Program-made: the position numbers and the translations under genes
Source: a virus
Taxonomy: Duplodnaviria > Heunggongvirae > Uroviricota > Caudoviricetes
Direction: 5' to 3' (one strand)
DNA: 10,266 nt
IMG/VR virus record: IMGVR_UViG_3300028991_000027
Coordinates: 1-10,266 of that record
In this document: positions 1-10,266 of the stretch, in pieces
Position numbering within the stretch: the stretch's first letter is position 1
Layout of the letters: the number at the start of each line of letters is the position of its first letter
The notes under the pieces: model-generated
Seen by the model: the letters and a program-made list of their open reading frames with translations, nothing else
Databases searched by the model: none
Told to the model about the DNA's origin: nothing

Positions 1-496
1 CGAAAGTAAGCAATCAGCGGGGCCATCACATGCTGTTTCAGTGCCCTGCCCTTCGCCTCACAGCCATCATCTTTCGGGCGATACGGCCCCTGATAATGTT
101 CCGCGAACAGAATGCGCTCTGTGGCCGGAAAATACGCCCGCAGGCTTTCCTTGTTACACCCGTTCCAGCGTCCGGGCGGCTTTGCCCAGATGATATGGTT
201 CAGCACGTTAAACCGCTCACGCATCATGATTTCGGTGTCAGATGCCAGGCGATGCCCACAGAACAGGTATAGACTTCCTGCAGGTTTCAGCACCCGCCAG
301 AACTGCGCAAGACACTGGTCCAGCCACTTCAGGTAATCTTCATCACCCGCCCACTGGTTATCCCAGCCTTCGGGTTTCACTTTAAAGTATGGTGGGTCTG
401 TGACTATCAGATCGACAGAGTTTTCCGGTAAGGTCTGGATACCAGGCAATCAGCGTTGATTAACTCACAACTGGATATTTTTACAGTGTTAGCCAT
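1..496 (-). CDS. DNA methyltransferase, beta-class N6-adenine/N4-cytosine type; 3' end beyond window; N-terminus interrupted by an apparent -1 frameshift
   Basis: Minus-strand translation from ATG at 496-494 gives MANTVKISSCELINADCLVSRPYRKTLSI then TGA at 409-407. The -1 frame opens after a TGA at 452-450 and reads LPGIQTLPENSVDLIVTDPPYFKVKPEGWDNQW... with no stop down to position 1. DPPY (motif IV) near the N-terminus, preceded by an xxDCL and SVDLIVTDPPY context, is the beta-class arrangement. Not in the ORF track because it runs off the edge. Confidence 0.6.
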
Positions 497-646
497 AGAT
501 CAATAAGCACTTCTCTGATAGGCTCATACCGCTTTTGCGCAAAGCAGATGGGCCTGAGGTTTGCTTGTGACCCCAACGCATGAGCAGATGGCTGGCAGGT
601 GCCGCTAACACCCACCAGCCGCCCATTACCACAAATAAAAAAGCCT

Positions 647-823
647 TCACTGAGGAAGGCGTCTGTAACAACCGAACTGATAATCTGCCAGACCCGCCAT
701 AACCAGCTGGGTCAGTATTAACTGACAACGTTCGCGTGAAAGGTAAGTATTCTGCGCAATTTCCCCGACAGTCGCCGGTTCGGTGACGCTCAATTCATTA
801 AACACCACTCTGGCAGTTTCGGT
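647..823 (-). CDS. small hypothetical protein (59 aa from ATG at 823), possibly winged-helix DNA-binding
   Basis: Part of ORF 647..844. From the first ATG it reads MTETARVVFNELSVTEPATVGEIAQNTYLSRERCQLILTQLVMAGLADYQ, an HTH-like pattern. The AGGA directly abuts the ATG, so the ribosome-binding site is poor. It is the first ORF after the tR'-like terminator. Confidence 0.3.
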   Translation of the reverse strand, partial: TETARVVFNELSVTEPATVGEIAQNTYLSRERCQLILTQLVMAGLADYQFGCYRRLPQ

Positions 824-905
824 CATATCCTGCTGTTTTAGCAAGCTGAAAGACCGGTATTCACCGCCACCAGCGCGTTTACTGTACTGACGCGATTTCA
901 GTCAT

Positions 906-928
906 AAAAAACCCGCCTGGCGGCGGGG
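906..928 (-). terminator. rho-independent terminator (tR'-like) closing a short transcript from the late promoter
   Basis: Minus strand reads CCCGCC-gcca-GGCGGG followed by TTTTTTAT (plus-strand stem arms 912-917 and 922-927, A-run 906-911). About 65 nt downstream of the putative late promoter. Confidence 0.6.
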
Positions 929-975
929 TGTAAAAAATCTTCTAACGTCAGGCATAAAACGCCCATCGTTAGGGG

Positions 976-1003
976 GATTTACCACAGATTCGGGAAAAAT
1001 CAA
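976..1003 (-). promoter_or_regulatory. putative late promoter PR' (with expected Q-utilisation region) just downstream of the Q-like gene
   Basis: Minus strand: -35 TTGATT (plus 998-1003), 16-nt spacer, extended -10 TGgTAAATC (plus 976-984). It begins 5 nt after the Q-like stop codon and is followed by the terminator at 906-928, as in lambda PR'-tR'. Confidence 0.4.
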
Positions 1004-1008
1004 CAAAG

Positions 1009-1830
1009 CTATCTGGTCACCTTTTTCAGTTGTTGTTCTGCCCATGCTTCTTCAATATCAAACTGCACCACCAGCGTATCGTAAAAACGTTTAACTGTTT
1101 TTTTCCATGTATCAAGAGATATGGCATCGGTTACATTACATATGGCATTAAATGCCTCCGTTGAAGGTAATCTTTCATAGCCACGCCCACCACAACGCTG
1201 ACAGTTTCTGAAAACCGGCACACCCTGTTTTTCCGACTCTTCACGATGAATGGCAACACCGCGCCCACGACAATCTTTACAGGCTGTGGAAACCTCCCCC
1301 TTTCCGCTACACTCCGGACAGGCAACTTTTACCACCTCCCTGACTTTTTTCCATTCCTCCCAGTAAGACGGATACACGCCTTTTGTGCACTTTGCCCATA
1401 CTGGCGGCTTACCATCCGGATACTGGATCTTGTTTGTAAAAATCTCGCTTTCAATAAATTTTTTTCCGTGACAGCAGGGGCACTGTTTTTTGCTCGCCGC
1501 GCTACGGGCATAATCTTCAAACGCATACGAAGCCATAATGCGCATCACTGCCGGTTTTATTTCTGCCGGGAGTTTTCTTAACGCCGCCACGCAATCACAC
1601 CGACTGAGTGCATATTCTGTCAGCAATTCTGTTGCCCGCTCTCTGTCATTCATACTAATGCCCATTTTCCCAAGGAACGCAGAAAACCCCATCTCAGCCC
1701 GATTCTGTGTCATGCCCTGCGCTGCCATCACATCAGTGATACTCAGCGCATCTTTTGACGTCGAGGCAGAGGCATCTGTCAGGCCGGGGGATTTTGGTGA
1801 ATAGTACTTCGGTAAATCTTCCAGTTTCAT
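1009..1830 (-). CDS. late-gene antiterminator Q-like protein (273 aa) with four DnaJ-type CxxCxGxG zinc-finger repeats
   Basis: Complete ORF. Lies between rusA (ATGA stop/start overlap at 1827-1830) and the PR'/tR'-like pair. Cys repeats CPCCHGKK, CPECSGKG, CKDCRGRG, CQRCGGRG at aa 117-217. The Q assignment is mainly positional. Confidence 0.55.
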   Translation of the reverse strand: MKLEDLPKYYSPKSPGLTDASASTSKDALSITDVMAAQGMTQNRAEMGFSAFLGKMGISMNDRERATELLTEYALSRCDCVAALRKLPAEIKPAVMRIMASYAFEDYARSAASKKQCPCCHGKKFIESEIFTNKIQYPDGKPPVWAKCTKGVYPSYWEEWKKVREVVKVACPECSGKGEVSTACKDCRGRGVAIHREESEKQGVPVFRNCQRCGGRGYERLPSTEAFNAICNVTDAISLDTWKKTVKRFYDTLVVQFDIEEAWAEQQLKKVTR

Positions 1831-2201
1831 TTTTGGGCCTGTCCTTCATGCGTTATTTGGTAAATCTTCACACCCAGTCGTCCACCAGATACTGGCCGAC
1901 CACGTACAATATTGATTTCATCAAACTGCTCATCGTCCATTAACAGCCCTGCATGCGTCAGCGCATCCAGCGGCGCTTTCAGGATATTGTCCAGGTCACG
2001 ACGGCGCTTATCCGGTGGCTCTGCAATAATCCTGATTACCAGCCTTCCGGACAGGCTTAATTTCAGCCGCTGCTGGCGAACAATAAGCGCCACAGCCCGG
2101 CGATAACGCTTTCCCTCCTCCGAGATAAAATATGTACTGCCACGACGACGCCAGTAGGTGTTCACCGTTGGCGGGTAAGGTAAAACCAAATCTATGGGCA
2201 T
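1827..2201 (-). CDS. rusA: RusA-family Holliday junction resolvase (124 aa)
   Basis: ORF track protein contains RRRDLDN and surrounding sequence recalled as typical of RusA. ATG at 2201 is preceded by GAGGTG; its stop overlaps the Q-like start (ATGA). Confidence 0.85.
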   Translation of the reverse strand: MPIDLVLPYPPTVNTYWRRRGSTYFISEEGKRYRRAVALIVRQQRLKLSLSGRLVIRIIAEPPDKRRRDLDNILKAPLDALTHAGLLMDDEQFDEINIVRGRPVSGGRLGVKIYQITHEGQAQK

Positions 2202-2213
2202 CAGTCACCTCTT

Positions 2214-3263
2214 TTACCCAAGCACGCCTGTTGCGAAGGCGTGATCAAGAAAATGAAAAATTAACTCAACCTGGGAGCCGTACTTTTTCTCAAACTCCAG
2301 CGGGTCAGCATGAAGTTCGTTGTGGTGCTCCCGGCACAACGGTAGTGTGAAAATATCGTGGGCCTTTGTTCCCATTCCGCCCTGCCCATGGCCAATCAGG
2401 TGATGCGGATCATCAGCTGGCTTTCCACAACATGCGCACGGCTGCGTCTTAACCCAGCGTGTGTACTTTTCATTAACCCAGCGACGACGTTTAGGCCGTT
2501 TCATGAAAGATTCCGGAGACTCCGGATCAACGGCGATGCTTACTACCGTCTTTTCCTGTGGCGTGGTTTGTGGCTGGTGGGCGTGAAGCGGTAGCGCTAT
2601 GTTTTTTGTGCGCTGCTTCAGGATGCCGGTGGCGGTCTGCTCTCCCGGTATGATGTCGCTCTCACGGTATACGGAGCGGATTTTTTCCACCGGTAATCCC
2701 AGCGAACGACGCAATACAGACCCCGGAAGCGCATCAGCCACCTGATTGCAGACCGCCCACCAGGATAATTCGGCCAGCGATAACTCCCTCTCCTGCGTGC
2801 CATTCATTGCGTGACGGATGACGTCAATCATCCAGGCAGCCAGATTCTGCTGAGCAAGTTGCTCCAGTGAATCAGATGTCTGCTCCCGCAACTGGTTGTC
2901 GCAGTGCCAGCACAACACCATCGCGCCGGTACCGTAACGGTGAATGACGGTTTCGCTGTGATGATAATCGCCATGTGGCCACTGGCAGGATTTCACTTGA
3001 CGTAATAACCAGTCAGACAGTGCACCAGCACCACCTGCAGCACGGATCACCCGCTCATCACTGAAAAATGGCAGTAATGATTTATCCTCCACCAGCGGCT
3101 GGCGAACAGTGGGAACCGCTCCGGATGGCAGCGCCCGCATGTTTTTCGGTTCCGGCTCCACCAGCACCCTGCCGCAATGAAAAACCGGCAGTGATTCGCG
3201 ACCGGGCTTAAGGACCACCAGCCCGAGCTCCGGTACCAGAACAGGTCGAAGTAATACCCGCAC
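2214..3263 (-). CDS. DUF968-family phage protein (YdfU-like, 349 aa) with C-terminal HNH-type motif
   Basis: GTG start at 3263 preceded by GGAGG at 5 nt. C-terminal CACCGKPADDPHHLIGHGQGG...LCREHHNELH resembles an HNH zinc-binding nuclease motif. Length matches the DUF968 proteins of E. coli cryptic prophages as recalled. Confidence 0.75.
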   Translation of the reverse strand: MRVLLRPVLVPELGLVVLKPGRESLPVFHCGRVLVEPEPKNMRALPSGAVPTVRQPLVEDKSLLPFFSDERVIRAAGGAGALSDWLLRQVKSCQWPHGDYHHSETVIHRYGTGAMVLCWHCDNQLREQTSDSLEQLAQQNLAAWMIDVIRHAMNGTQERELSLAELSWWAVCNQVADALPGSVLRRSLGLPVEKIRSVYRESDIIPGEQTATGILKQRTKNIALPLHAHQPQTTPQEKTVVSIAVDPESPESFMKRPKRRRWVNEKYTRWVKTQPCACCGKPADDPHHLIGHGQGGMGTKAHDIFTLPLCREHHNELHADPLEFEKKYGSQVELIFHFLDHAFATGVLG

Positions 3264-3264
3264 G

Positions 3265-3537
3265 TTACCTCCAGATGCGTTGCTGGAATGTGCGGGACGG
3301 ACGCGGAGGGCGTTCGGAATAAGGAAGCCTGACAGAGATTATCCAGTGACGATAATCGAGACTGAGGGCTTTCTTAACCTCGTATCCGCGCCTGCGGTAA
3401 CACTGAATCAGCCATTCGGCCTGTTCTTCAGTGCATGGGGGATGCAGGTACCAGTGGGTTTTAAATACGTACGAATGCCGCCCCCGCTTAATGGCCGGGA
3501 CGGCTTCAGAATTGTGGGATTTTATATGTTGCGCCAT
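3265..3537 (-). CDS. hypothetical nin-region protein (about 90 aa from ATG 3537; ORF track extends to a TTG at 3585)
   Basis: ORF 3265..3585. Its stop lies 1 nt before the DUF968 GTG start, suggesting coupling. The TTG at 3585 sits almost inside the upstream terminator T-tract, so the internal ATG at 3537 (MAQHIKSHNSEAV...) is preferred. No family recognised. Confidence 0.4.
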   Translation of the reverse strand: MAQHIKSHNSEAVPAIKRGRHSYVFKTHWYLHPPCTEEQAEWLIQCYRRRGYEVKKALSLDYRHWIISVRLPYSERPPRPSRTFQQRIWR

Positions 3538-3600
3538 CGCAGCAGGTGTCAGTTGTTCAGGCTGACGGCGCGAATTGTAAGGCAATACGCCGGAATGTAC

Positions 3601-3628
3601 AAACAGAAACCCCGTCAGTAAGACGGGG
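3601..3628 (-). terminator. rho-independent terminator downstream of the OB-fold gene
   Basis: Minus strand: CCCCGTC-ttact-GACGGGG followed by TTTCTGTTT (plus stem arms 3610-3616 and 3622-3628). Confidence 0.5.
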
Positions 3629-3645
3629 ATAACCTGAACCGATTA

Positions 3646-3990
3646 CTATAATAATTTCAGAGTTTTTACATCCAGTTCAACACTGTTCAGGTCTTTATCA
3701 AGTTCCCCCTCAATTATTACCTTGTCTTTCGGAGAAACATTCTGCCCGGCCCATACACTTTTATCGATATCCGTGACAATGGTTCCGCTACTGTCGCGAA
3801 ACTCATAACGATCATCACCCAATTTTTTAACGATGTGCCCTTCAAGGATAACCCATGCCTCGTCCTTCTGTTCTTTTGCCTGCACTACTGTTGTTGAACG
3901 CTCTGCTTCAGACCCCAGAAAACCTCCCTGTTGTGCAAAAACGCCAAAAGACACGCAGGAAAAAAGGGCTGCGATTAATACTTTTTTCAT
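3646..3990 (-). CDS. YgiW/YdeI-family (BOF) OB-fold periplasmic protein with signal peptide (114 aa)
   Basis: Start taken at ATG 3990 (MKKVLIAALFSCVSFGVFAQQGGF...), preceded by GAGGA; the ORF-track N-terminal extension is not supported. QGGF, DDRYEFRDSSGTIVTDID and GELDKDLNSVELDVK match the YgiW/YdeI pattern as recalled. Flanked by its own terminator. Confidence 0.8.
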   Translation of the reverse strand: MKKVLIAALFSCVSFGVFAQQGGFLGSEAERSTTVVQAKEQKDEAWVILEGHIVKKLGDDRYEFRDSSGTIVTDIDKSVWAGQNVSPKDKVIIEGELDKDLNSVELDVKTLKLL

Positions 3991-4078
3991 TATCGTCCTC
4001 TTCAAGAAATTAACATGAACACTTGCATTGCAGCATATAAAATGCGGGTGCGTTGAGGATGCCTGACACATCAGAGGT

Positions 4079-4100
4079 GGCGAGGGATTTCTCCCTCGCC
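4079..4100 (-). terminator. stable GC hairpin at the 3' end of the hok transcript
   Basis: GGCGAGGGA-tttc-TCCCTCGCC, 8 nt past the hok stop codon. No clean U-tract on the minus strand, so it may be a 3' stabilising or fold-back element rather than an intrinsic terminator. Confidence 0.35.
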
Positions 4101-4107
4101 TGGTCTC

Positions 4108-4263
4108 TTACTTCTCAGATTCGTAGTCTACGAAGACAGCGACCTCCGTCTGGCCGGTTCGGATTCGTACCTCGCAGAGGTCTTTCCTCGTTACCAGTGC
4201 CGTCACTATGACGGTTAAACAGATGACGATCAGGGCGATTAACATCGCCTTTTGCTGCTTCAT
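4108..4263 (-). CDS. hok: Hok/Gef-family type I toxin (51 aa membrane peptide)
   Basis: Translated by hand from the minus strand: MKQQKAMLIALIVICLTVIVTALVTRKDLCEVRIRTGQTEVAVFVDYESEK. It is shorter than the ORF-track cutoff. Hydrophobic N-terminus and the TRKDLCEV...GQTEVA core match the Hok family. Confidence 0.9.
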   Translation of the reverse strand: MKQQKAMLIALIVICLTVIVTALVTRKDLCEVRIRTGQTEVAVFVDYESEK

Positions 4264-4321
4264 AGTCTGCTTCTCCTTGACCTTTCGGTCCGTAAGAGGC
4301 TAACCTACGTTTGTGAAGCAT
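4115..4321 (-). CDS. mok: mok-like overlapping reading frame (68 aa) upstream of and overlapping hok
   Basis: ORF 4115..4321 begins with ATG 58 nt upstream of hok and overlaps it in another frame, as mok does in hok/sok loci. The protein itself is low-complexity; the call is positional. Confidence 0.4.
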   Translation of the reverse strand: MLHKRRLASYGPKGQGEADYEAAKGDVNRPDRHLFNRHSDGTGNEERPLRGTNPNRPDGGRCLRRLRI

Positions 4322-4380
4322 AGATTGGGCCTCAGATTAATGTTAAGCGTCTTGCAGGACGCGTAATGTTAACTGGGGCT
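4290..4380 (+). ncRNA. sok: possible sok-like antisense RNA region (position inferred, boundaries not defined)
   Basis: In hok/sok loci the antisense RNA overlaps the mok start on the opposite strand. Here I find only a weak plus-strand promoter candidate (TTGACC 4277-4282, poor -10) and a small hairpin GCGTC-ttgcag-GACGC at 4347-4362. It may be degenerate. Confidence 0.2.
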
Positions 4381-4439
4381 TTTCTCTGTCTGCCTTACGG
4401 CGGCATGCCCGAGGCAGACAGCCTCAGGCACCCGCAGCA

Positions 4440-4467
4440 ATTCTACTTTACTCTCGTTTTACTGCAA
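4440..4467 (-). promoter_or_regulatory. putative sigma70 promoter for hok/mok mRNA
   Basis: Minus strand: TTGCAG (plus 4462-4467), 16-nt spacer, TAGAAT (plus 4440-4445). This gives a leader of roughly 110 nt before the mok-like ATG. Confidence 0.45.
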
Positions 4468-4571
4468 ACCTTTTATCCCGGGCGCATATTACCCGATATG
4501 GGAACTCACACATCGAAATGAATTCGCTTCCATTGCCCCCTCAATCACATAACCAGACACATAAAATGTAC

Positions 4572-4601
4572 TTGCCATCTGAAGAGACAATAATCTAAAC
4601 T
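4572..4601 (+). promoter_or_regulatory. putative promoter for the plus-strand DUF1640-like gene
   Basis: TTGCCA (4572-4577), 18-nt spacer, TAAACT (4596-4601), followed by SD AAGGA (4623-4627) 9 nt before the ATG at 4637. Confidence 0.3.
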
Positions 4602-4636
4602 CAGAAGATCCCTCAATAGCATAAGGAATTGATATT

Positions 4637-4924
4637 ATGGGTCACGTCTATTTTGACACATTAAAATTTGCCGAAGCACTGGAAAAAGCTGGCATGCCAG
4701 CTGAACAGGCGCGCGCCATTTCCTCCGCAATAAAAGATGCCCATGAGGCAATTGAAGTTGCAACTAAAAATGACCTTCACTACGCAAGCTCAGAACTTAA
4801 GCGCGATATTCTGTCAATTAATGAGAAAATTGACCACCTCATATTTCAAGTAACTTTTCGGTTAGGGGTAATAATTTCTATATGTATAGTAGTTGTATTT
4901 GCCATAATTAAAATGAATATGTAA
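4637..4924 (+). CDS. small coiled-coil protein with C-terminal transmembrane helix (DUF1640-like, 95 aa)
   Basis: Complete ORF with a good SD. Protein MGHVYFDTLKFAEALEKAGMPAEQARAISSAIKDAHEA... ends in the hydrophobic LGVIISICIVVVFAIIKM. Opposite strand to all neighbours, with its own terminator. Family name is from memory. Confidence 0.65.
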   Translation: MGHVYFDTLKFAEALEKAGMPAEQARAISSAIKDAHEAIEVATKNDLHYASSELKRDILSINEKIDHLIFQVTFRLGVIISICIVVVFAIIKMNM

Positions 4925-4937
4925 CAACCAGCCATAT

Positions 4938-4976
4938 AACGGGCTGATATTTATTATATCAGCCCGTTGTCTTTTT
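4938..4976 (+). terminator. rho-independent terminator after the DUF1640-like gene
   Basis: AACGGGCTGATAT-ttatt-ATATCAGCCCGTT followed by GTCTTTTT. The minus-strand copy lacks a U-tract. Confidence 0.7.
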
Positions 4977-5000
4977 AAATAAGACAAGGCGTAACAGTTG

Positions 5001-5456
5001 TCAAAGAAATATTAATTGCTTCATTCTGCATGACATTACCGCCCTTTCTGTCGCCCTCATGATATATTTAAGGTGTAGACACGCCTCCGCCATTCTGATA
5101 ATCGGGTCTTCTGAAGTCATCTTTTCTGGCGAATCGCAGTCAGCACCACATTCAGTAATGCGTTCATAATCAAAACGAGCGGTGATTTTATGTGCACCAA
5201 TCATTTGCGTAAGCGCATCTGTCAACTCTGCAATGCGCTTATCTTTGGCTTCCAACTCGCCCGGCAGCACCAGTGCTACCTTTAGATTAAAGGTAGCAAT
5301 GAAGTCCGCGTTATTTTTCAGAATATGGTGCACAATAAGTACACCATTGAGTTTTACCTTGTAACCTCGTGCGCCACAATGCGGTCTATATGAGCTCCAG
5401 TCTCCCCCACGTTGCTTTTTCTGAAGCGTCACGCATCTTCCGGTAATTAATTTCAA
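5001..5456 (-). CDS. hypothetical protein (up to 151 aa); last gene of the minus-strand operon before the moron island
   Basis: ORF 5001..5456. The start is a TTG overlapping the DUF4406 stop (TTGA), with AGGAGA 10 nt upstream; the first in-frame ATG is far downstream, so the true start is uncertain. Six Cys and an R-x6-H near the C-terminus (RMAEACLH). No family recognised. Confidence 0.5.
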   Translation of the reverse strand: MKLITGRCVTLQKKQRGGDWSSYRPHCGARGYKVKLNGVLIVHHILKNNADFIATFNLKVALVLPGELEAKDKRIAELTDALTQMIGAHKITARFDYERITECGADCDSPEKMTSEDPIIRMAEACLHLKYIMRATERAVMSCRMKQLIFL

Positions 5457-5752
5457 TCACTGGTTGTCTCCTGGAAAATAACTGCATGCCCCAATTTCTC
5501 CGCCAGTGCCAGCTCTGCCTTAGCGCCCGCTGACCGCTGCCAGCCTTTCAGCATGTAAATCGCATCCACACAACGAATCATTGCCATGCAAATATCCATG
5601 TAATGTGGCTGAGTCAGCCCGTCCGGAAGTACTGCCGGGTTTAAAACGGTATGCCCTTCCCGTTTCAGCGCTTCTTCCGCCTTGTGAAACGCATCACGGT
5701 TGAAATTTTCATATCCCGTCATCGGACCAGCGATATAAATTCTCACCCTCAC
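5453..5752 (-). CDS. DUF4406-family protein (nucleoside 2-deoxyribosyltransferase-like fold, 99 aa)
   Basis: GTG start preceded by AGGAGG at 8 nt. N-terminal RIYIAGPMTGYENFN...VLNP matches the remembered DUF4406 signature. Confidence 0.7.
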   Translation of the reverse strand: MRVRIYIAGPMTGYENFNRDAFHKAEEALKREGHTVLNPAVLPDGLTQPHYMDICMAMIRCVDAIYMLKGWQRSAGAKAELALAEKLGHAVIFQETTSD

Positions 5753-6003
5753 TCCATCACCTCCTGAAAATTACCCTGACAGAACGCCAGTACACGCTGC
5801 ATGACTTCGCTATTTCGGCACTCACAGCAAATTATGTTCTTATGCCTGTCATAGCGGCGTATTTCTCCGTCTGGTAACTTTCGAATCAATGTCTGGTCAG
5901 TTGTTTTCTCCGGTGTCTTACGCCATACGCGATACACCTGTTCAGATGCAAAAACACCGTATTTACCGGACATGTATAAATCGCCACAAGCCAGTACATC
6001 CAC
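5749..6003 (-). CDS. hypothetical ORF, possibly the C-terminal part of a frameshifted gene whose N-terminus is ORF 5886..6143
   Basis: ORF track. Its stop overlaps the DUF4406 GTG start (GTGA), but neither the GTG at 6003 nor the ATG at 5973 has a recognisable SD, and it overlaps ORF 5886..6158 by about 118 nt in another frame. Confidence 0.3.
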   Translation of the reverse strand: MDVLACGDLYMSGKYGVFASEQVYRVWRKTPEKTTDQTLIRKLPDGEIRRYDRHKNIICCECRNSEVMQRVLAFCQGNFQEVME

Positions 6004-6143
6004 AAGGCAACGTCTGACTGAATGCCAGCCTGTCCCGTCGCTCTCTCCAGTTGTGATATCGTCATGCGTTCATTTTTGCGTACCAACCCGATAATTCGGG
6101 CCTTCAGTTCTTCACGCTGTTCGTGTGTAAAAGGTTTCGCCAT
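5886..6143 (-). CDS. small hypothetical protein with HTH-like N-terminus (85 aa from ATG 6143)
   Basis: ATG at 6143 is preceded by GGAGG and follows the upstream stop by 15 nt. N-terminus MAKPFTHEQREELKARIIGLVRKNERMTISQLERATGQ looks like real protein; the C-terminal 40 aa are W/Y/C/H-rich and resemble out-of-frame translation. Confidence 0.4.
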   Translation of the reverse strand: MAKPFTHEQREELKARIIGLVRKNERMTISQLERATGQAGIQSDVALWMYWLVAIYTCPVNTVFLHLNRCIAYGVRHRRKQLTRH

Positions 6144-6158
6144 AAGCGCCTCCGGCAA

Positions 6159-6884
6159 TCACTTTTCCGACACAATACGACCGGATGAATCGACAATCTG
6201 CCGAACAATATCCCGGTGCTTGTTCAACTCCCGCAACGCGGCACAGACTCGTTCCCACTTCTGGACATCACTTTTCGCCCGGCGCAGCTCGCGGTTAGCC
6301 ACATGCAGCGATGGTAGAATCAGGTCATCTGCTTTCGTTTCGGTGACCGATGGCTGTAACTTCACAATGTCTTCCACGATTTCTGTTTTCATTTCTTCCT
6401 GTGTCGTCGTTTCCTGGACTGGTAACGCAACACCTGCTGGCTGAGGAAAGGCTTTACCATCGGTTTCCGCTACGGATGCCGCTTCCGGCTCTGCCGGTAA
6501 ATCAGCGCCCGGTATGCAGTAACGAAATTTACCGCCCTGATTCACGCGAATCAGACGCCCTTTGCTGATTGCCATTGCCAGCGATGAATTCGCCCGGCGG
6601 GAGGTAATTCCGAACATCAGTGCCAGTTCATCCGCCGTTTGTGGGCCATGTTGTTCAATCGCCTCTGTCAGCATTTGCGCTGTCACTTTCGGTACCGGTG
6701 ACACCGGTTCACTTTCACCAGCCTGAGTCAGCCACCACATCGACCCCTTGTTATCCGCTTCACCGCGGCGCTTCAGTTTCCACAGTTCGTTGACCGCCTC
6801 TTCACGGCTGATTCCAAGGCGCGATGCCACTACCTGTGAAGAGGCTTTTTTCAGTGCTTTCAGTGCGTCAAATACGGTTTCCAT
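6159..6884 (-). CDS. phage protein with two N-terminal winged-helix-like domains, acidic linker and C-terminal coiled coil (241 aa from ATG 6884)
   Basis: ORF 6159..6902; the ATG at 6884 with GGAGG upstream is preferred over the TTG at 6902. Two HTH-like segments ([27 protein letters not shown] and [28 protein letters not shown]). Sits directly after the DnaC-like gene. Function unknown. Confidence 0.6.
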
Positions 6885-6905
6885 TAAAACGTCCTCCGAC
6901 AAAAA

Positions 6906-7652
6906 TTACTTCACAACCCTCTGATTGCTGACATTTGGACGCCAGCTATCCCAGTTAAACGTCACCCATCGACCACCGTTCATGGTCATGCGGTCCATAA
7001 TCCTCTCACCGAGAAGCGTACTCATTGCGGCATGATTCAGGTTTGTTAACATCCCGACACTGCACAGTGATGCTGTCCGGCGATCAATTATCTGGTGCAA
7101 TACCACCTGCTCGTTTTTCGTCTCACGCTGAACGCCTATTTCATCCAGGACCAGCAAATCAACCCCGCAAAGCTCCTGTAAAAATTTTTCCCCGGACTGG
7201 CCGTTGTCGTAGCTGTCATGCAACACACTCATGACGTCAGACACGGTGACGATAATCACGCTGCTCCCCTTCGCCATCAGCCGGTTGCCCATCGCCGCTG
7301 CAAGGTGATTTTTCCCGGTGCCGGTTTTACCGCTGAACACAAAATTCGTGCACCCGGTCATCAGTTCGTCAGCGATGGATTTTGCCTGGCTCAGCGCGTG
7401 TTTTTGCCCGTCGTTCTGCACCTGATAATTCGCAAACGAGCATTTGCTGTGCAGAGGCTGGATGCCCGAACGATTCAGGATTTTTTCCACCCGCAACTGG
7501 CGATTCTGGCGGTTAATCTCCTCGCTGCGTTTTCGTCCTTCAGCAAGCTGCCATTCCCGCCACTCCTCCACCGTCCGGTACGGTGGAACCGCCCCCTGTG
7601 GTGCAAGTCTGCGAATACGTTCAAGAACCCCGGCTGCCGCAATGTTTTTCAT
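6906..7652 (-). CDS. DnaC-family helicase loader (phage replication protein P analogue, 248 aa)
   Basis: Walker A FVFSGKTGTGKNHLAAA, Walker B DLLVLDEIGVQ, and a C-terminus (MLTNLNHAAMSTLLGERIMDRM...FNWDSWRP) close to E. coli DnaC as recalled. ATG at 7652. Confidence 0.9.
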   Translation of the reverse strand: MKNIAAAGVLERIRRLAPQGAVPPYRTVEEWREWQLAEGRKRSEEINRQNRQLRVEKILNRSGIQPLHSKCSFANYQVQNDGQKHALSQAKSIADELMTGCTNFVFSGKTGTGKNHLAAAMGNRLMAKGSSVIIVTVSDVMSVLHDSYDNGQSGEKFLQELCGVDLLVLDEIGVQRETKNEQVVLHQIIDRRTASLCSVGMLTNLNHAAMSTLLGERIMDRMTMNGGRWVTFNWDSWRPNVSNQRVVK

Positions 7653-7658
7653 GCCACG

Positions 7659-8627
7659 TCACCCCCTGAATCCAGGCGGTATTTCAGTGTCCGGTTCAGA
7701 AATGTGATTCACGCAACGCTGCGCGGGCGAACGCCCCAGGCGGATAACCAGTTCATCCCATTTTTCCCGGAGTTTTGCCGGACTCATGATGTTTTTTACC
7801 CAGAACGAATCCCGCTGGACACGCCCAAACATTTCACAAATCTGCCGGTGACTACGTCCATCCAGCATACGCATCATGCGCACATCATTCGCCCAGGTCG
7901 TCCAGTTAGGTTCTCGGGGGCGTGACACCTCACCATCATCACTGGCGGCCTGTTCATACAACGCCACAACCCGTCCCCAAATCCACTGCGCACAGGCGAC
8001 ATCCTCACGGGTACCCCACTGTCGCTTCGGTACATTCCAGGTATGCGCATCCGGGTGTTTCTCCAGAAATCGCTCAACTGGTGATGATTGTTTTTCGTCC
8101 GGCAGTGAAACGTCCGGACAAGAAGATCTTTTATCTGACGGATCAGGTTTTAATACTGACGGATCGGGGTCAATCATCGCCCCCCTAATCGGCAGTTTTT
8201 TATCAACCGTTGATCCATCAAAATTTGACGGGTCAACCGTTGAGGGGTCAATATTTGACGGGTCAACTGTTAACGGGTCATTTTTTGCCGGGCTAATTTT
8301 TCTTTTCGGTTTATATGACTCACGCGCCGCCGCCGCAGCTGCTTCGAGTTTTTCCACATTAAGCCGATAGATATTGCTTACATTACGCCCACCGACCTTA
8401 CGCTCTTCCTTCGTCAGCCAGCCCTCTTTCGCCAGTTCTGCAATAGCCGATTTCACGGTGGATTCACTTCTTGCACCGATCTGACGCCGGATAGTTTCAA
8501 TGGCAGGCCATGACACGCCCTCGTCATTGCTGTAGTCTGCTAGACGGGCCATCACTGCCACCCGGGATAAGATCATGCCGGTGAAGGCGCATCCTTCCCA
8601 GACAAGACCATGAAGCTTGCTGCTCAT
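7659..8627 (-). CDS. replication initiator, lambda O-like (N-terminal winged-helix domain, repeat-encoded linker, C-terminal domain; 322 aa from ATG 8627)
   Basis: ORF 7659..8642; the ATG at 8627 preceded by GGGGG is preferred over the GTG at 8642. It lies immediately upstream of the DnaC-like gene, and the iteron repeats fall inside its linker (DPLTVDPSNIDPSTVDPSNFDGSTVD), as in lambda O. Confidence 0.75.
   Translation of the reverse strand: MSSKLHGLVWEGCAFTGMILSRVAVMARLADYSNDEGVSWPAIETIRRQIGARSESTVKSAIAELAKEGWLTKEERKVGGRNVSNIYRLNVEKLEAAAAAARESYKPKRKISPAKNDPLTVDPSNIDPSTVDPSNFDGSTVDKKLPIRGAMIDPDPSVLKPDPSDKRSSCPDVSLPDEKQSSPVERFLEKHPDAHTWNVPKRQWGTREDVACAQWIWGRVVALYEQAASDDGEVSRPREPNWTTWANDVRMMRMLDGRSHRQICEMFGRVQRDSFWVKNIMSPAKLREKWDELVIRLGRSPAQRCVNHISEPDTEIPPGFRG
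8137..8320. repeat. iteron-like direct repeats plus AT-rich tract: putative origin of replication inside the O-like gene
   Basis: A 20-bp repeat TTTGACGGGTCAAC(C/T)GTT(G/A)A at 8224-8243 and 8254-8273. The GGGTCA core recurs at about 15-bp spacing (around 8166, 8230, 8244, 8260, 8275), with GACGGATCA variants at 8137 and 8158. An AT-rich stretch follows at 8281-8320. Confidence 0.6.
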
Positions 8628-8649
8628 AAAACCCCCGAACACCGTGCTT

Positions 8650-9075
8650 TTAGTGCATCACCACAGCATTCCCTGCCGGGCCGCCGCGATTCATCTGGTC
8701 ATACAAAACAACCGCTGACGCAACAAAATCGTCGACATCCTTCACCAGCCGATCCCGCCGTTCGACGATCTCACGGTAATACTCAGAACTGTGGCTGCGC
8801 ATACGGGCCACCAGCAAAGGCGGCATCGCCTTTTCGATCGCTGGTAACAGAGCCTGAATTTTTTCAACAGCATCAGGGGTGTCTTTATCCAACCAACGGA
8901 AAATTTTCTGGGTATTACGGGCCAGGGCTTCCGGATGACTGTCGTCGTACAGTTCCGGGAACGTCATCCCCAGCTCGAAATACGCTTTGGTAATTTTCGC
9001 AGCCGGTACTTTTTCGCCGTCCGGATGCGCCCAGGCATTCATCGCCATGCGGATGTGCTCATGCTTGATTTTCAT
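8650..9075 (-). CDS. YdaT-family protein (141 aa), second gene of the cro-side operon
   Basis: Complete ORF beginning MKIKHEHI...; ATGA overlap with the cro-like stop. Family assignment is from remembered similarity to Rac YdaT. Confidence 0.65.
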   Translation of the reverse strand: MKIKHEHIRMAMNAWAHPDGEKVPAAKITKAYFELGMTFPELYDDSHPEALARNTQKIFRWLDKDTPDAVEKIQALLPAIEKAMPPLLVARMRSHSSEYYREIVERRDRLVKDVDDFVASAVVLYDQMNRGGPAGNAVVMH

Positions 9076-9299
9076 GAATCACTCTTCCTTTCGCTCTGAG
9101 TGGTATCCTTCTTTTTGTAAAGCTCTGGGTTCAAAGATAATTTTCCCTTGGAGTATGCAGCAGCTTCCGCAGCTCTCCCTTTCGGAACTATTTCACCGGG
9201 GCGCTTACGCCACATGTAAATAGCTTCGCGGGTTATCCCATAAAAATCAGCGACCCTCTGAACAGAGCCAAAAAACTGAACAAGTTCATCAACTCGCAT
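9072..9299 (-). CDS. Cro-like HTH regulator, YdaS family (75 aa)
   Basis: ATG at 9299 preceded by AGGAGG. HTH segment VADFYGITREAIYMWRKR. Divergent from the CI-like gene across the operator region. Confidence 0.75.
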   Translation of the reverse strand: MRVDELVQFFGSVQRVADFYGITREAIYMWRKRPGEIVPKGRAAEAAAYSKGKLSLNPELYKKKDTTQSERKSDS

Positions 9300-9312
9300 T
9301 TCATCCTCCTAA

Positions 9313-9379
9313 AATCTAAGTATTTTTAGATTACAGGATAATTTTTTTTAGGTCAATGCAATCTAAAATAATTTATATT
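9313..9379. promoter_or_regulatory. OR-like operator/promoter region between the cro-like and cI-like genes
   Basis: O1 AATCTAAgtatttTTAGATT (9313-9332) and O2 AATCTAAaataatTTATATT (9360-9379). Minus-strand PR candidate: -35 TTGACC (plus 9351-9356), 17-nt spacer, -10 TAATCT (plus 9328-9333) overlapping O1. Plus-strand PRM candidate: -10 TATATT (9374-9379) overlapping O2, with a poor -35. Confidence 0.6.
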
Positions 9380-9395
9380 CAACTCGCGGGAGAAA

Positions 9396-10043
9396 ATGAT
9401 GGAAAGCCTTGGCATCAGGCTTAAGAAACTCAGAAAAGATAAGGGACTCACCCAAGTAGAACTGGGTAAGCTTTCAGGCGTGACCGGGGTTACTATAGGG
9501 TACTGGGAGAAAGATCTAAACGAACCCGGCAGCAAAGCTCTAAGTAAGTTAGCCCAAGCATTAGGAACTACTGAGTCCTATCTCCTGTATGGAGTATCGT
9601 CTCCTGAACTATCTTTTGTGCAGAGCAATCCAGGCACCAAGATCCCCTACTTTTCGTGGGGTGACGCGATTTCTTTCCTAATCTTAGAAGGAGAGAAAAC
9701 AATGGGAAATGTCGATAGGATCACCACATTCTTTGATGTAGTGGAAGGTGATTTTGCCGTTTCAATGCCTGATGACACTATGCATAACCCCTCAGGGTCG
9801 CCAAGTATCCCAGTTGGTGCCACTGTGATCCTAAGACCAGGAGAAAGTTATAAAAATGGCAGTATCGTCGCTGTAATAGTTCCAGATCCTCTTACAAATG
9901 AACCGTCTATGACTATAAAAAAATTAGTTATTGATGGAAAACTTGTGTATTTAAGCCCTCTCAATCCGCGCTATCAATCATCCTTGCTTACGCCAGAGTG
10001 TAAAATTGTTGCCGTAGCAAAAGGTGTACAGTTCAACCTATAA
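9396..10043 (+). CDS. CI-type prophage repressor (N-terminal HTH, C-terminal S24 LexA-like peptidase domain, 215 aa)
   Basis: HTH GLTQVELGKLSGVTGVTIGYWEKD. C-terminal domain contains candidate Ser and Lys motifs (GDFAVSM, IKKLVIDGKLVYLSPLNPRY). Divergent from the cro-like gene and flanked by operator-like sites on both sides. Confidence 0.85.
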   Translation: MMESLGIRLKKLRKDKGLTQVELGKLSGVTGVTIGYWEKDLNEPGSKALSKLAQALGTTESYLLYGVSSPELSFVQSNPGTKIPYFSWGDAISFLILEGEKTMGNVDRITTFFDVVEGDFAVSMPDDTMHNPSGSPSIPVGATVILRPGESYKNGSIVAVIVPDPLTNEPSMTIKKLVIDGKLVYLSPLNPRYQSSLLTPECKIVAVAKGVQFNL

Positions 10044-10064
10044 CCCTGCCATGTTCTTGAACTT

Positions 10065-10092
10065 AAGGTCGGTTATGTCGACCTTTTTTTTA
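10065..10092 (+). terminator. rho-independent terminator after the cI-like gene
   Basis: AAGGTCG-gttatgt-CGACCTT followed by TTTTTTT, 22 nt after the stop codon. Confidence 0.65.
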
Positions 10093-10110
10093 AATTAATT
10101 TAGATTCCTC

Positions 10111-10139
10111 TTGACTATAAAACTAAATACTTTTAGATT
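10111..10139 (+). promoter_or_regulatory. PL-like promoter with OL-like operator, directed rightward out of the window
   Basis: -35 TTGACT (10111-10116), 17-nt spacer, -10 TAGATT (10134-10139). Operator AAACTAAatacttTTAGATT (10120-10139) matches the OR consensus at 6 of 7 and 7 of 7 half-site positions; another TTAGATT sits at 10100-10106. Confidence 0.5.
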
Positions 10140-10235
10140 TGTTGTATACCAACCCACCCCGCTCCACAGAACGTCGGGCAATACCTCGAGTTACCCGGCA
10201 GTGGTCAGGGGTTAAGTAGCCAGCCCGAGGCGTAT

Positions 10236-10266
10236 GAACATGACGGCGGGAACACTTTGTATAACA
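10236..10266 (+). CDS. 5' end of an unidentified plus-strand gene running off the right edge
   Basis: ATG at 10236 preceded by GAGG 4 nt upstream, about 95 nt after the PL-like promoter. Only 10 codons (MNMTAGTLCI) are visible. Confidence 0.2.

Follow-up and report, generated by a model that had tools for sequence, protein, structure and literature searches.

The 10,266-nucleotide (nt) stretch analyzed here, which we call the window (positions 1 to 10,266 of the IMG/VR virus record IMGVR_UViG_3300028991_000027), carries a minus-strand gene whose product, on the evidence of its sequence, is most probably (a rough probability of 0.9) a late-gene transcription antiterminator of the Q-lambda family (PF03589) from an Escherichia coli lambdoid prophage. 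The gene is already known and routinely annotated, with 'antitermination protein' as its RefSeq name. An earlier sequence-only reading had called it Q mainly from its position; that call is now upheld on grounds beyond position, as homology to lambda Q runs the full length of the protein and a lambda-like PR' promoter, pause element and terminator lie directly downstream.

1009..1830, minus strand: Q gene, 273 amino acids (aa), probable Q-lambda-family late-gene antiterminator of the long, four-motif form

A phmmer search of PDB sequences with window Q recovered lambda Q (7ubm_Q, E 5e-41) as a pair of aligned blocks, placing window residues 1-113 on lambda 1-113 and residues 182-273 on lambda 116-207. 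Profile searches agree with this identity: the score for Pfam PF03589 'Antiterm' is 171.5 bits (cut-off 26.7; E 4e-51), the whole length of the protein is matched by PHROG 127 'anti-termination protein Q-like' (9e-112), and the four-helix body fold expected of the family is predicted. Identity to lambda Q ranges by region from 32 to 52% and is highest in the segment equivalent to the lambda torus, the best-conserved part of the protein. Also retained are lambda Q residues G39, E134 (E200 here), L202 (L268) and T206 (T272), of which G39, L202 and T206 have been implicated in antitermination and E134 is an arm-tip residue (PMC9388147). The three Q families (lambda, Q21 and Q82) share no obvious sequence similarity (PMC9388147), and window Q gave no match at E <= 0.1 to Q21 (PF06530) or Q82 (PF06323), whose members occupy the same genome slot and do the same job.

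In lambda Q, the N-terminal 44 residues fold into a torus, or nozzle, in the RNA-exit channel, residues 61-113 and 153-207 form a body of four helices with a helix-turn-helix (HTH), and residues 114-152 form a zinc-ribbon arm (PMC9388147). The corresponding segments of window Q, drawn from the lambda alignment and an AlphaFold2 (AF2) model, are as follows.

1699..1830, minus strand: torus-equivalent segment, aa 1-44, within the gap-free alignment to lambda Q 1-113, 52% identical and with G39 kept; putative role as for lambda (PMC9388147)
1492..1650, minus strand: N-terminal half of the body, aa 61-113, from the lambda alignment, with AF2 helices 60-80 and 92-112
1288..1491, minus strand: insertion of 68 residues, aa 114-181, skipped by the lambda Q alignment and holding cysteine motifs 1 and 2
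1321-1458, minus strand: long beta-hairpin predicted by AF2, aa 125-170, clamped by motifs 1 and 2
1177..1287, minus strand: equivalent of the zinc-ribbon arm, aa 182-218, in which motifs 3 and 4 correspond to lambda C118/C121 and C144/C147
1012..1176, minus strand: C-terminal half of the body, aa 219-273, where the HTH lies in lambda Q (PMC9388147), with L268 and T272 in the places of lambda L202 and T206

Window Q carries four cysteine motifs, located by a regular-expression scan of the translation.

1482-1459, minus strand: motif 1, CPCCHGKK, aa 117-124
1320-1297, minus strand: motif 2, CPECSGKG, aa 171-178
1281-1258, minus strand: motif 3, CKDCRGRG, aa 184-191
1203-1180, minus strand: motif 4, CQRCGGRG, aa 210-217

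The sequence-only reading had described four evenly organised CxxCxGxG motifs at aa 117-217 (nt 1180-1482). These coordinates are exact and three of the motifs are perfect, but motif 1 is a CxxCxGxK, ending in lysine at a position that is usually glycine in homologues (consensus CDCCxGxG), and the spacing is uneven, with start-to-start distances of 54, 13 and 26 residues. That the motifs do not constitute a chance pattern is indicated both by composition-preserving shuffles of window Q (n = 200,000), which yielded at least one CxxCxGxG in 0.2% of cases and at least three in none, and by the invariance of all eight motif cysteines across an alignment of 72 homologues at 34-96% identity.

Motifs 3 and 4 are, by sequence alignment, lambda Q's own zinc ribbon: C184, C187, C210 and C213 align with lambda C118, C121, C144 and C147, and the strand-helix-strand unit that AF2 places between them (192-194/196-202/207-209) matches the B1-H3-B2 description of the lambda Q arm (PMC9388147). 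An earlier suggestion that the zinc architecture differs from that of lambda Q is thus largely unsupported, since lambda Q carries CRDCHGTG and CGRCKGVG aligned with motifs 3 and 4, and the architecture seen here builds on lambda's instead of breaking with it. What does set the two proteins apart is the 68-residue insertion with motifs 1 and 2, which falls between lambda residues 113 and 116, although the inserted form turns out to be the commoner one in the family. Within the insertion, C117, C120, C171, C174, F131 and K134 are invariant in the 72 sequences, and AF2 predicts hairpin strands at 125-136 and 159-170 with a block-mean predicted local distance difference test (pLDDT) score of about 76-82. 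The hairpin carries an 'FTNK' sequence containing the invariant F131 and K134, as well as a conserved P.G..P.W.K tip. In this model motifs 1 and 2 are predicted to hold the base of the inserted hairpin, enlarging the arm; they would bind zinc in their own right, giving two Cys4 sites that appear to sit side by side with the pairing 1+2 and 3+4. An internal duplication was considered as the source of motifs 1 and 2 and rejected, as BLASTP of aa 110-182 against 183-273 recovered a 9-residue knuckle only (E 0.011).

To place this architecture in the family, we searched 1.84 billion representatives clustered at 50% identity exhaustively with HMMER, which returned only 237 relatives at E <= 0.001. 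Among representatives of at least 190 aa, about thirty have four motifs versus about half a dozen with the two motifs of lambda, so that the four-motif architecture is, as judged from these sequences, the majority form of the Q-lambda family; because it is the commoner form among representatives, lambda Q looks like a reduced form. Measured start to start, motifs 1 and 2 are 14 to 63 residues apart across these representatives. A phmmer search of PDB sequences found no structure of a four-motif Q, and a literature search for four-motif Q proteins or quuQ found nothing relevant. Structural knowledge of the Q-lambda family therefore rests on lambda Q alone, with its one zinc site, leaving a gap at the second site and hairpin that most family representatives, including phi80 Q, possess.

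Comparison with named Q proteins further delineates the long form. Lambda Q (PDB 4MO1, 7UBJ-7UBN; PF03589) lacks the 68 residues, two cysteine motifs and long hairpin of window Q. The Q protein of phi80 (gp17, 269 aa) has all four motifs and the same insertion, in which 35 of the 68 residues (51%) are identical, and the phi80 record annotates a late antiterminator, pR', Q-binding site and terminator laid out as in the window; our statements on phi80 Q are based on its GenBank annotation and on its citation within PMC9388147. The E. coli K-12 Qin prophage protein YdfT/QuuQ (250 aa) also has four motifs, with a shorter hairpin and a fourth motif ending in NR, and ydfT comes after ydfU just as window Q does. 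Overall identity of window Q to phi80 Q and to YdfT is about 42% each. Motif 3 is CxC in phi80 Q and many relatives, versus CxxC in window Q.

The second line of evidence for the Q assignment lies immediately beyond the Q stop codon (1011-1009, minus strand), where the elements follow one another in the order TTGATT, spacer, TAAATC, CCCCT, AACGATGGG, leader hairpin and terminator.

976..1003, minus strand: candidate late promoter PR', composed of TTGATT (1003-998), a 16-nt spacer TTTCCCGAATCTGTGG and TAAATC (981-976)
962..970, minus strand: putative sigma-dependent pause element AACGATGGG, identical to that of lambda PR'
906..927, minus strand: intrinsic terminator tR', stem-loop CCCGCCGCCAGGCGGG plus T6, from a terminator scan

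The window thus has the sequence hallmarks of a qut site, in which the early-right operon ends and a late promoter, pause element and terminator follow directly. The terminator, which the sequence-only reading had placed at 906-928, is real, with its stem at 927..912 and T-run at 911..906 on the minus strand. In lambda PR' the arrangement is TAAATT-TGACTC-AACGATGGG (lambda sequence TAAATTTGACTCAACGATGGG), and in phi80 it is TAGATT-CATCTCT-AACGCTGGG; by sequence, the -10-like element expected to pause the sigma70-holoenzyme for Q loading is the same as lambda's. The lambda late promoter differs from that of the window in its spacer, the candidate Q-binding element, and in its leader RNA, which is roughly 190 nt in lambda versus about 60 nt (predicted at 60-65 nt, ended by tR') in the window. 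Conservation was assessed in 80 related IMG/VR loci with Q proteins 63-99% identical to that of the window. The block of promoter, spacer, pause element and terminator downstream of Q is conserved in these loci: the pause element is kept in most, with single-base variants in about ten, and the spacer sequence TTTTCC[CG]GAAT, of which 4 of the 80 have a single-base variant, is the likely Q-binding element.

The PR' leader has a predicted folding energy of -27.4 kcal/mol (z -3.9) and contains, 5' of the terminator, a stem-loop at 942-972 (minus strand; CTAACG..CGTTAG around GGGCGTTTTATGCC) that is predicted to be stable and includes the pause element. By analogy, the leader could be a short constitutive RNA like the lambda 6S or StxS RNAs; no Rfam family matched it, sok being the only Rfam match in the window.

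By homology to lambda Q, the four-helix body with its HTH and the zinc-ribbon arm would bind the Q-binding element inside the late promoter just downstream of the gene, with binding timed to the moment when RNA polymerase is held at a sigma70-dependent pause set by AACGAT. [quoted passage not shown] Window Q is accordingly expected to bind DNA and antiterminate as lambda Q does. A proposal that the protein might engage RNA polymerase or DNA in a distinct mode finds little support here: the regions that act on RNA polymerase are conserved, from the 52% identical torus segment to the counterparts of G39, E134, L202 and T206, and this conservation argues for the same basic mechanism.

The alternative that survives best grants that the protein is a Q but holds that motifs 1 and 2, with the hairpin, form an extra zinc module that gives materially different loading, through contacts that lambda Q does not make, whether with promoter DNA, sigma region 4, NusA or the beta' zinc-binding domain; this is a sharpened version of the earlier proposal of a distinct mode. 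In the lambda loading complex, Q residues 110-112, 117 and 122-126 touch the beta' zinc-binding domain of RNA polymerase (PMC9388147), and the insertion, lying between lambda 113 and 116, adjoins these very residues. Also pointing this way are the invariant F131 and K134, the conserved tip, the 51% identity of the insertion to that of phi80 Q and the fact that no four-motif Q has a solved structure in the PDB, and it is plausible that the insertion adds a contact with DNA or polymerase. However, hairpin length in the family varies from about 14 to 63 residues, the FTNK..GKPP part is missing from K-12 YdfT, the module is absent altogether from lambda and P22 Q, and pause element and torus segment both follow the lambda pattern. 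Because its length is so variable and it is missing from lambda and P22 Q, the hairpin is probably accessory, and materially different loading is rather unlikely. We hold with similar reserve, as a speculative extension, that the second zinc site and hairpin may add a contact absent from lambda Q and thereby alter promoter specificity or cofactor dependence of loading, and that the enlarged arm might also be related to the DnaJ cysteine-rich domain by circular permutation, with lambda Q a reduced derivative. The partner in such a contact could be promoter DNA beyond a lambda-type Q-binding element, the RNA polymerase beta' zinc-binding domain, sigma region 4 or NusA.

Several observations weigh against a fully lambda-like Q system in the window. 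The zinc pairing is drawn from predicted secondary structure only, and the candidate PR' was not called by a simple consensus promoter scan. The window's -10 element is TAAATC, whereas related copies mostly have TAAATT, with TAAGTT at two loci of the E. coli type and TAATTT where the Q proteins are 63-68% identical, and its spacer from -10 to pause is 5 nt (CCCCT, in the region 971-981) versus usually 6 nt in relatives. Neither the 87 loci compared nor 5,426 complete E. coli genomes contained the exact promoter stretch of the window, the best match in the genomes being 96.6% over 86 nt. This copy of PR' may thus be weakened, and the TAAATC with its short spacer reflects either a sequencing error or a mutation, confined to this copy, that weakens the promoter.

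These features raise the question of whether the window holds an intact but idle remnant, in which the Q protein works but its cognate late promoter is crippled and no Q-dependent late transcription takes place. A -10 without its conserved final T together with a 1-nt deletion before AACGAT, a combination unique among the 87 loci and 5,426 genomes, is what such a remnant might display. However, the Q ORF is untruncated and keeps every conserved residue, the early region looks complete (repressor, cro, O/P-like genes and rusA), the altered -10 may be offset by a TGn extended -10 (TGG before TAAATC), and the promoter difference could itself be a sequencing error; we therefore regard an idle remnant as improbable.

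Returning to window Q as a lambda-family antiterminator, its resemblance to the DnaJ cysteine-rich domain (PF00684; E. coli DnaJ 144-200), proposed from the sequence alone, is genuine but borderline. The CxxCxGxG knuckle is common to both, and PF00684 is among the precomputed Pfam labels on most of the homologues listed, yet window Q itself does not reach the Pfam cut-off.

PF00684 against window Q: 31.2 bits, just below the cut-off of 32.7
PF00684 against K-12 YdfT: 35.4 bits, above the cut-off of 32.7
PF00684 against lambda Q: 23.1 bits
hhalign of the 72-homologue alignment against E. coli DnaJ: Q motifs 2-4 on DnaJ motifs 1-3 (C144, C161, C183), probability 90.5%, E 1.4e-6
Foldseek, first non-Q matches: DnaJA2, E about 1, probability 0.9

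One zinc is shared by motifs 2 and 3 of DnaJ (1EXK), and lambda Q's counterparts of window motifs 3 and 4 likewise share one. The partner of DnaJ motif 1 is C-terminal to it, whereas in Q the predicted equivalent partner, motif 1, is N-terminal, giving a permuted order; the zinc hairpins of DnaJ are nested (1+4/2+3) and those of Q, in the model, would stand side by side (1+2/3+4). The four nested motifs and above-threshold PF00684 score that characterize the cysteine-rich domain are not found in window Q, in which only three motifs align. There was no match to the J domain (PF00226, HPD test) at E <= 0.1, and a Pfam profile search found neither the DnaJ C-terminal domains nor a G/F region. The arm of window Q is therefore a borderline relative of the DnaJ cysteine-rich domain and not of the DnaJ protein family. 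That the gene merely sits in the Q slot and encodes an unrelated zinc-finger protein, such as a DnaJ-like chaperone or redox protein, is scarcely credible: besides the PF00684 and hhalign results this reading can draw on a TIGR02349 match (1.5e-5), a weak match to anti-TRAP and one database homologue (P0032) named 'chaperone protein DnaJ', but the DnaJ-like match is weak and spans only about 50 residues, whereas homology to lambda Q includes the non-zinc parts, and the phmmer match to lambda Q together with the Pfam results effectively refutes a DnaJ-like chaperone.

The surroundings of the gene are those of the early-right region of an E. coli lambdoid prophage, comprising repressor, cro, O/P-like genes, hok/sok, DUF968/ydfU, rusA and Q.

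1827..2201, minus strand: rusA, Holliday-junction resolvase (PF05866, 1.2e-16), immediately upstream of Q

The Q start codon overlaps the rusA stop codon (ATGA), and it is this neighbor that defines the Q position. O121 RM8352 and the Stx2a phage EH1910 have the order ydfU-rusA-Q as well, and the longer run ydfU-rusA-Q-small ORF-methylase also matches EH1910, in which tRNAs and stx2AB come next. The EH1910 copy, annotated quuQ, is 96% identical to the window protein and lies upstream of the methylase, tRNAs and stx2AB. This copy, lying directly upstream of stx2AB in a phage that converts its host to Stx2a production, gives the gene a medical context; Q type and cognate PR' are known to affect Shiga toxin output (PMC6266700). 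About half of the complete E. coli genomes (2,479 of 5,426) match the Q gene with its promoter region at a coverage of at least 80%. The best of these matches (99.5% identical) are in O121:H19 strains, in which it is annotated 'antitermination protein' and resides in a non-Stx prophage. The first 46 kb of LC567841, examined for the Stx-phage allele 'qO111', proved to hold a different prophage with a 229-aa Q.

The closest genome overall is E. coli UTAK-6, at 97.8% identity over 88% of the window. There, the slot between rusA and the small ORF and methylase (L002 5061-5750) is occupied by a 229-aa antiterminator of the Q82 family (PF06323). The difference between UTAK-6 and the window is a clean swap of the Q/qut module between otherwise near-identical prophages.

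Downstream of Q, between tR' and the DNA methylase gene, lies a 65-aa ORF (647-844, minus strand) with weak winged-helix matches of the TrmB/MarR-like kind; its RefSeq homologue is named hypothetical or 'TrmB family', and it is a pseudogene in UTAK-6. A second terminator-like hairpin (660..643) follows this ORF. Upstream, a hok/gef-type toxin ORF of 51 aa (4108-4263, minus strand) is accompanied by a full-length Rfam match to the sok antitoxin RNA (4261-4433, minus strand; 103.9 bits), together indicating a hok/sok module (4108-4433) in the nin-like region of the prophage.
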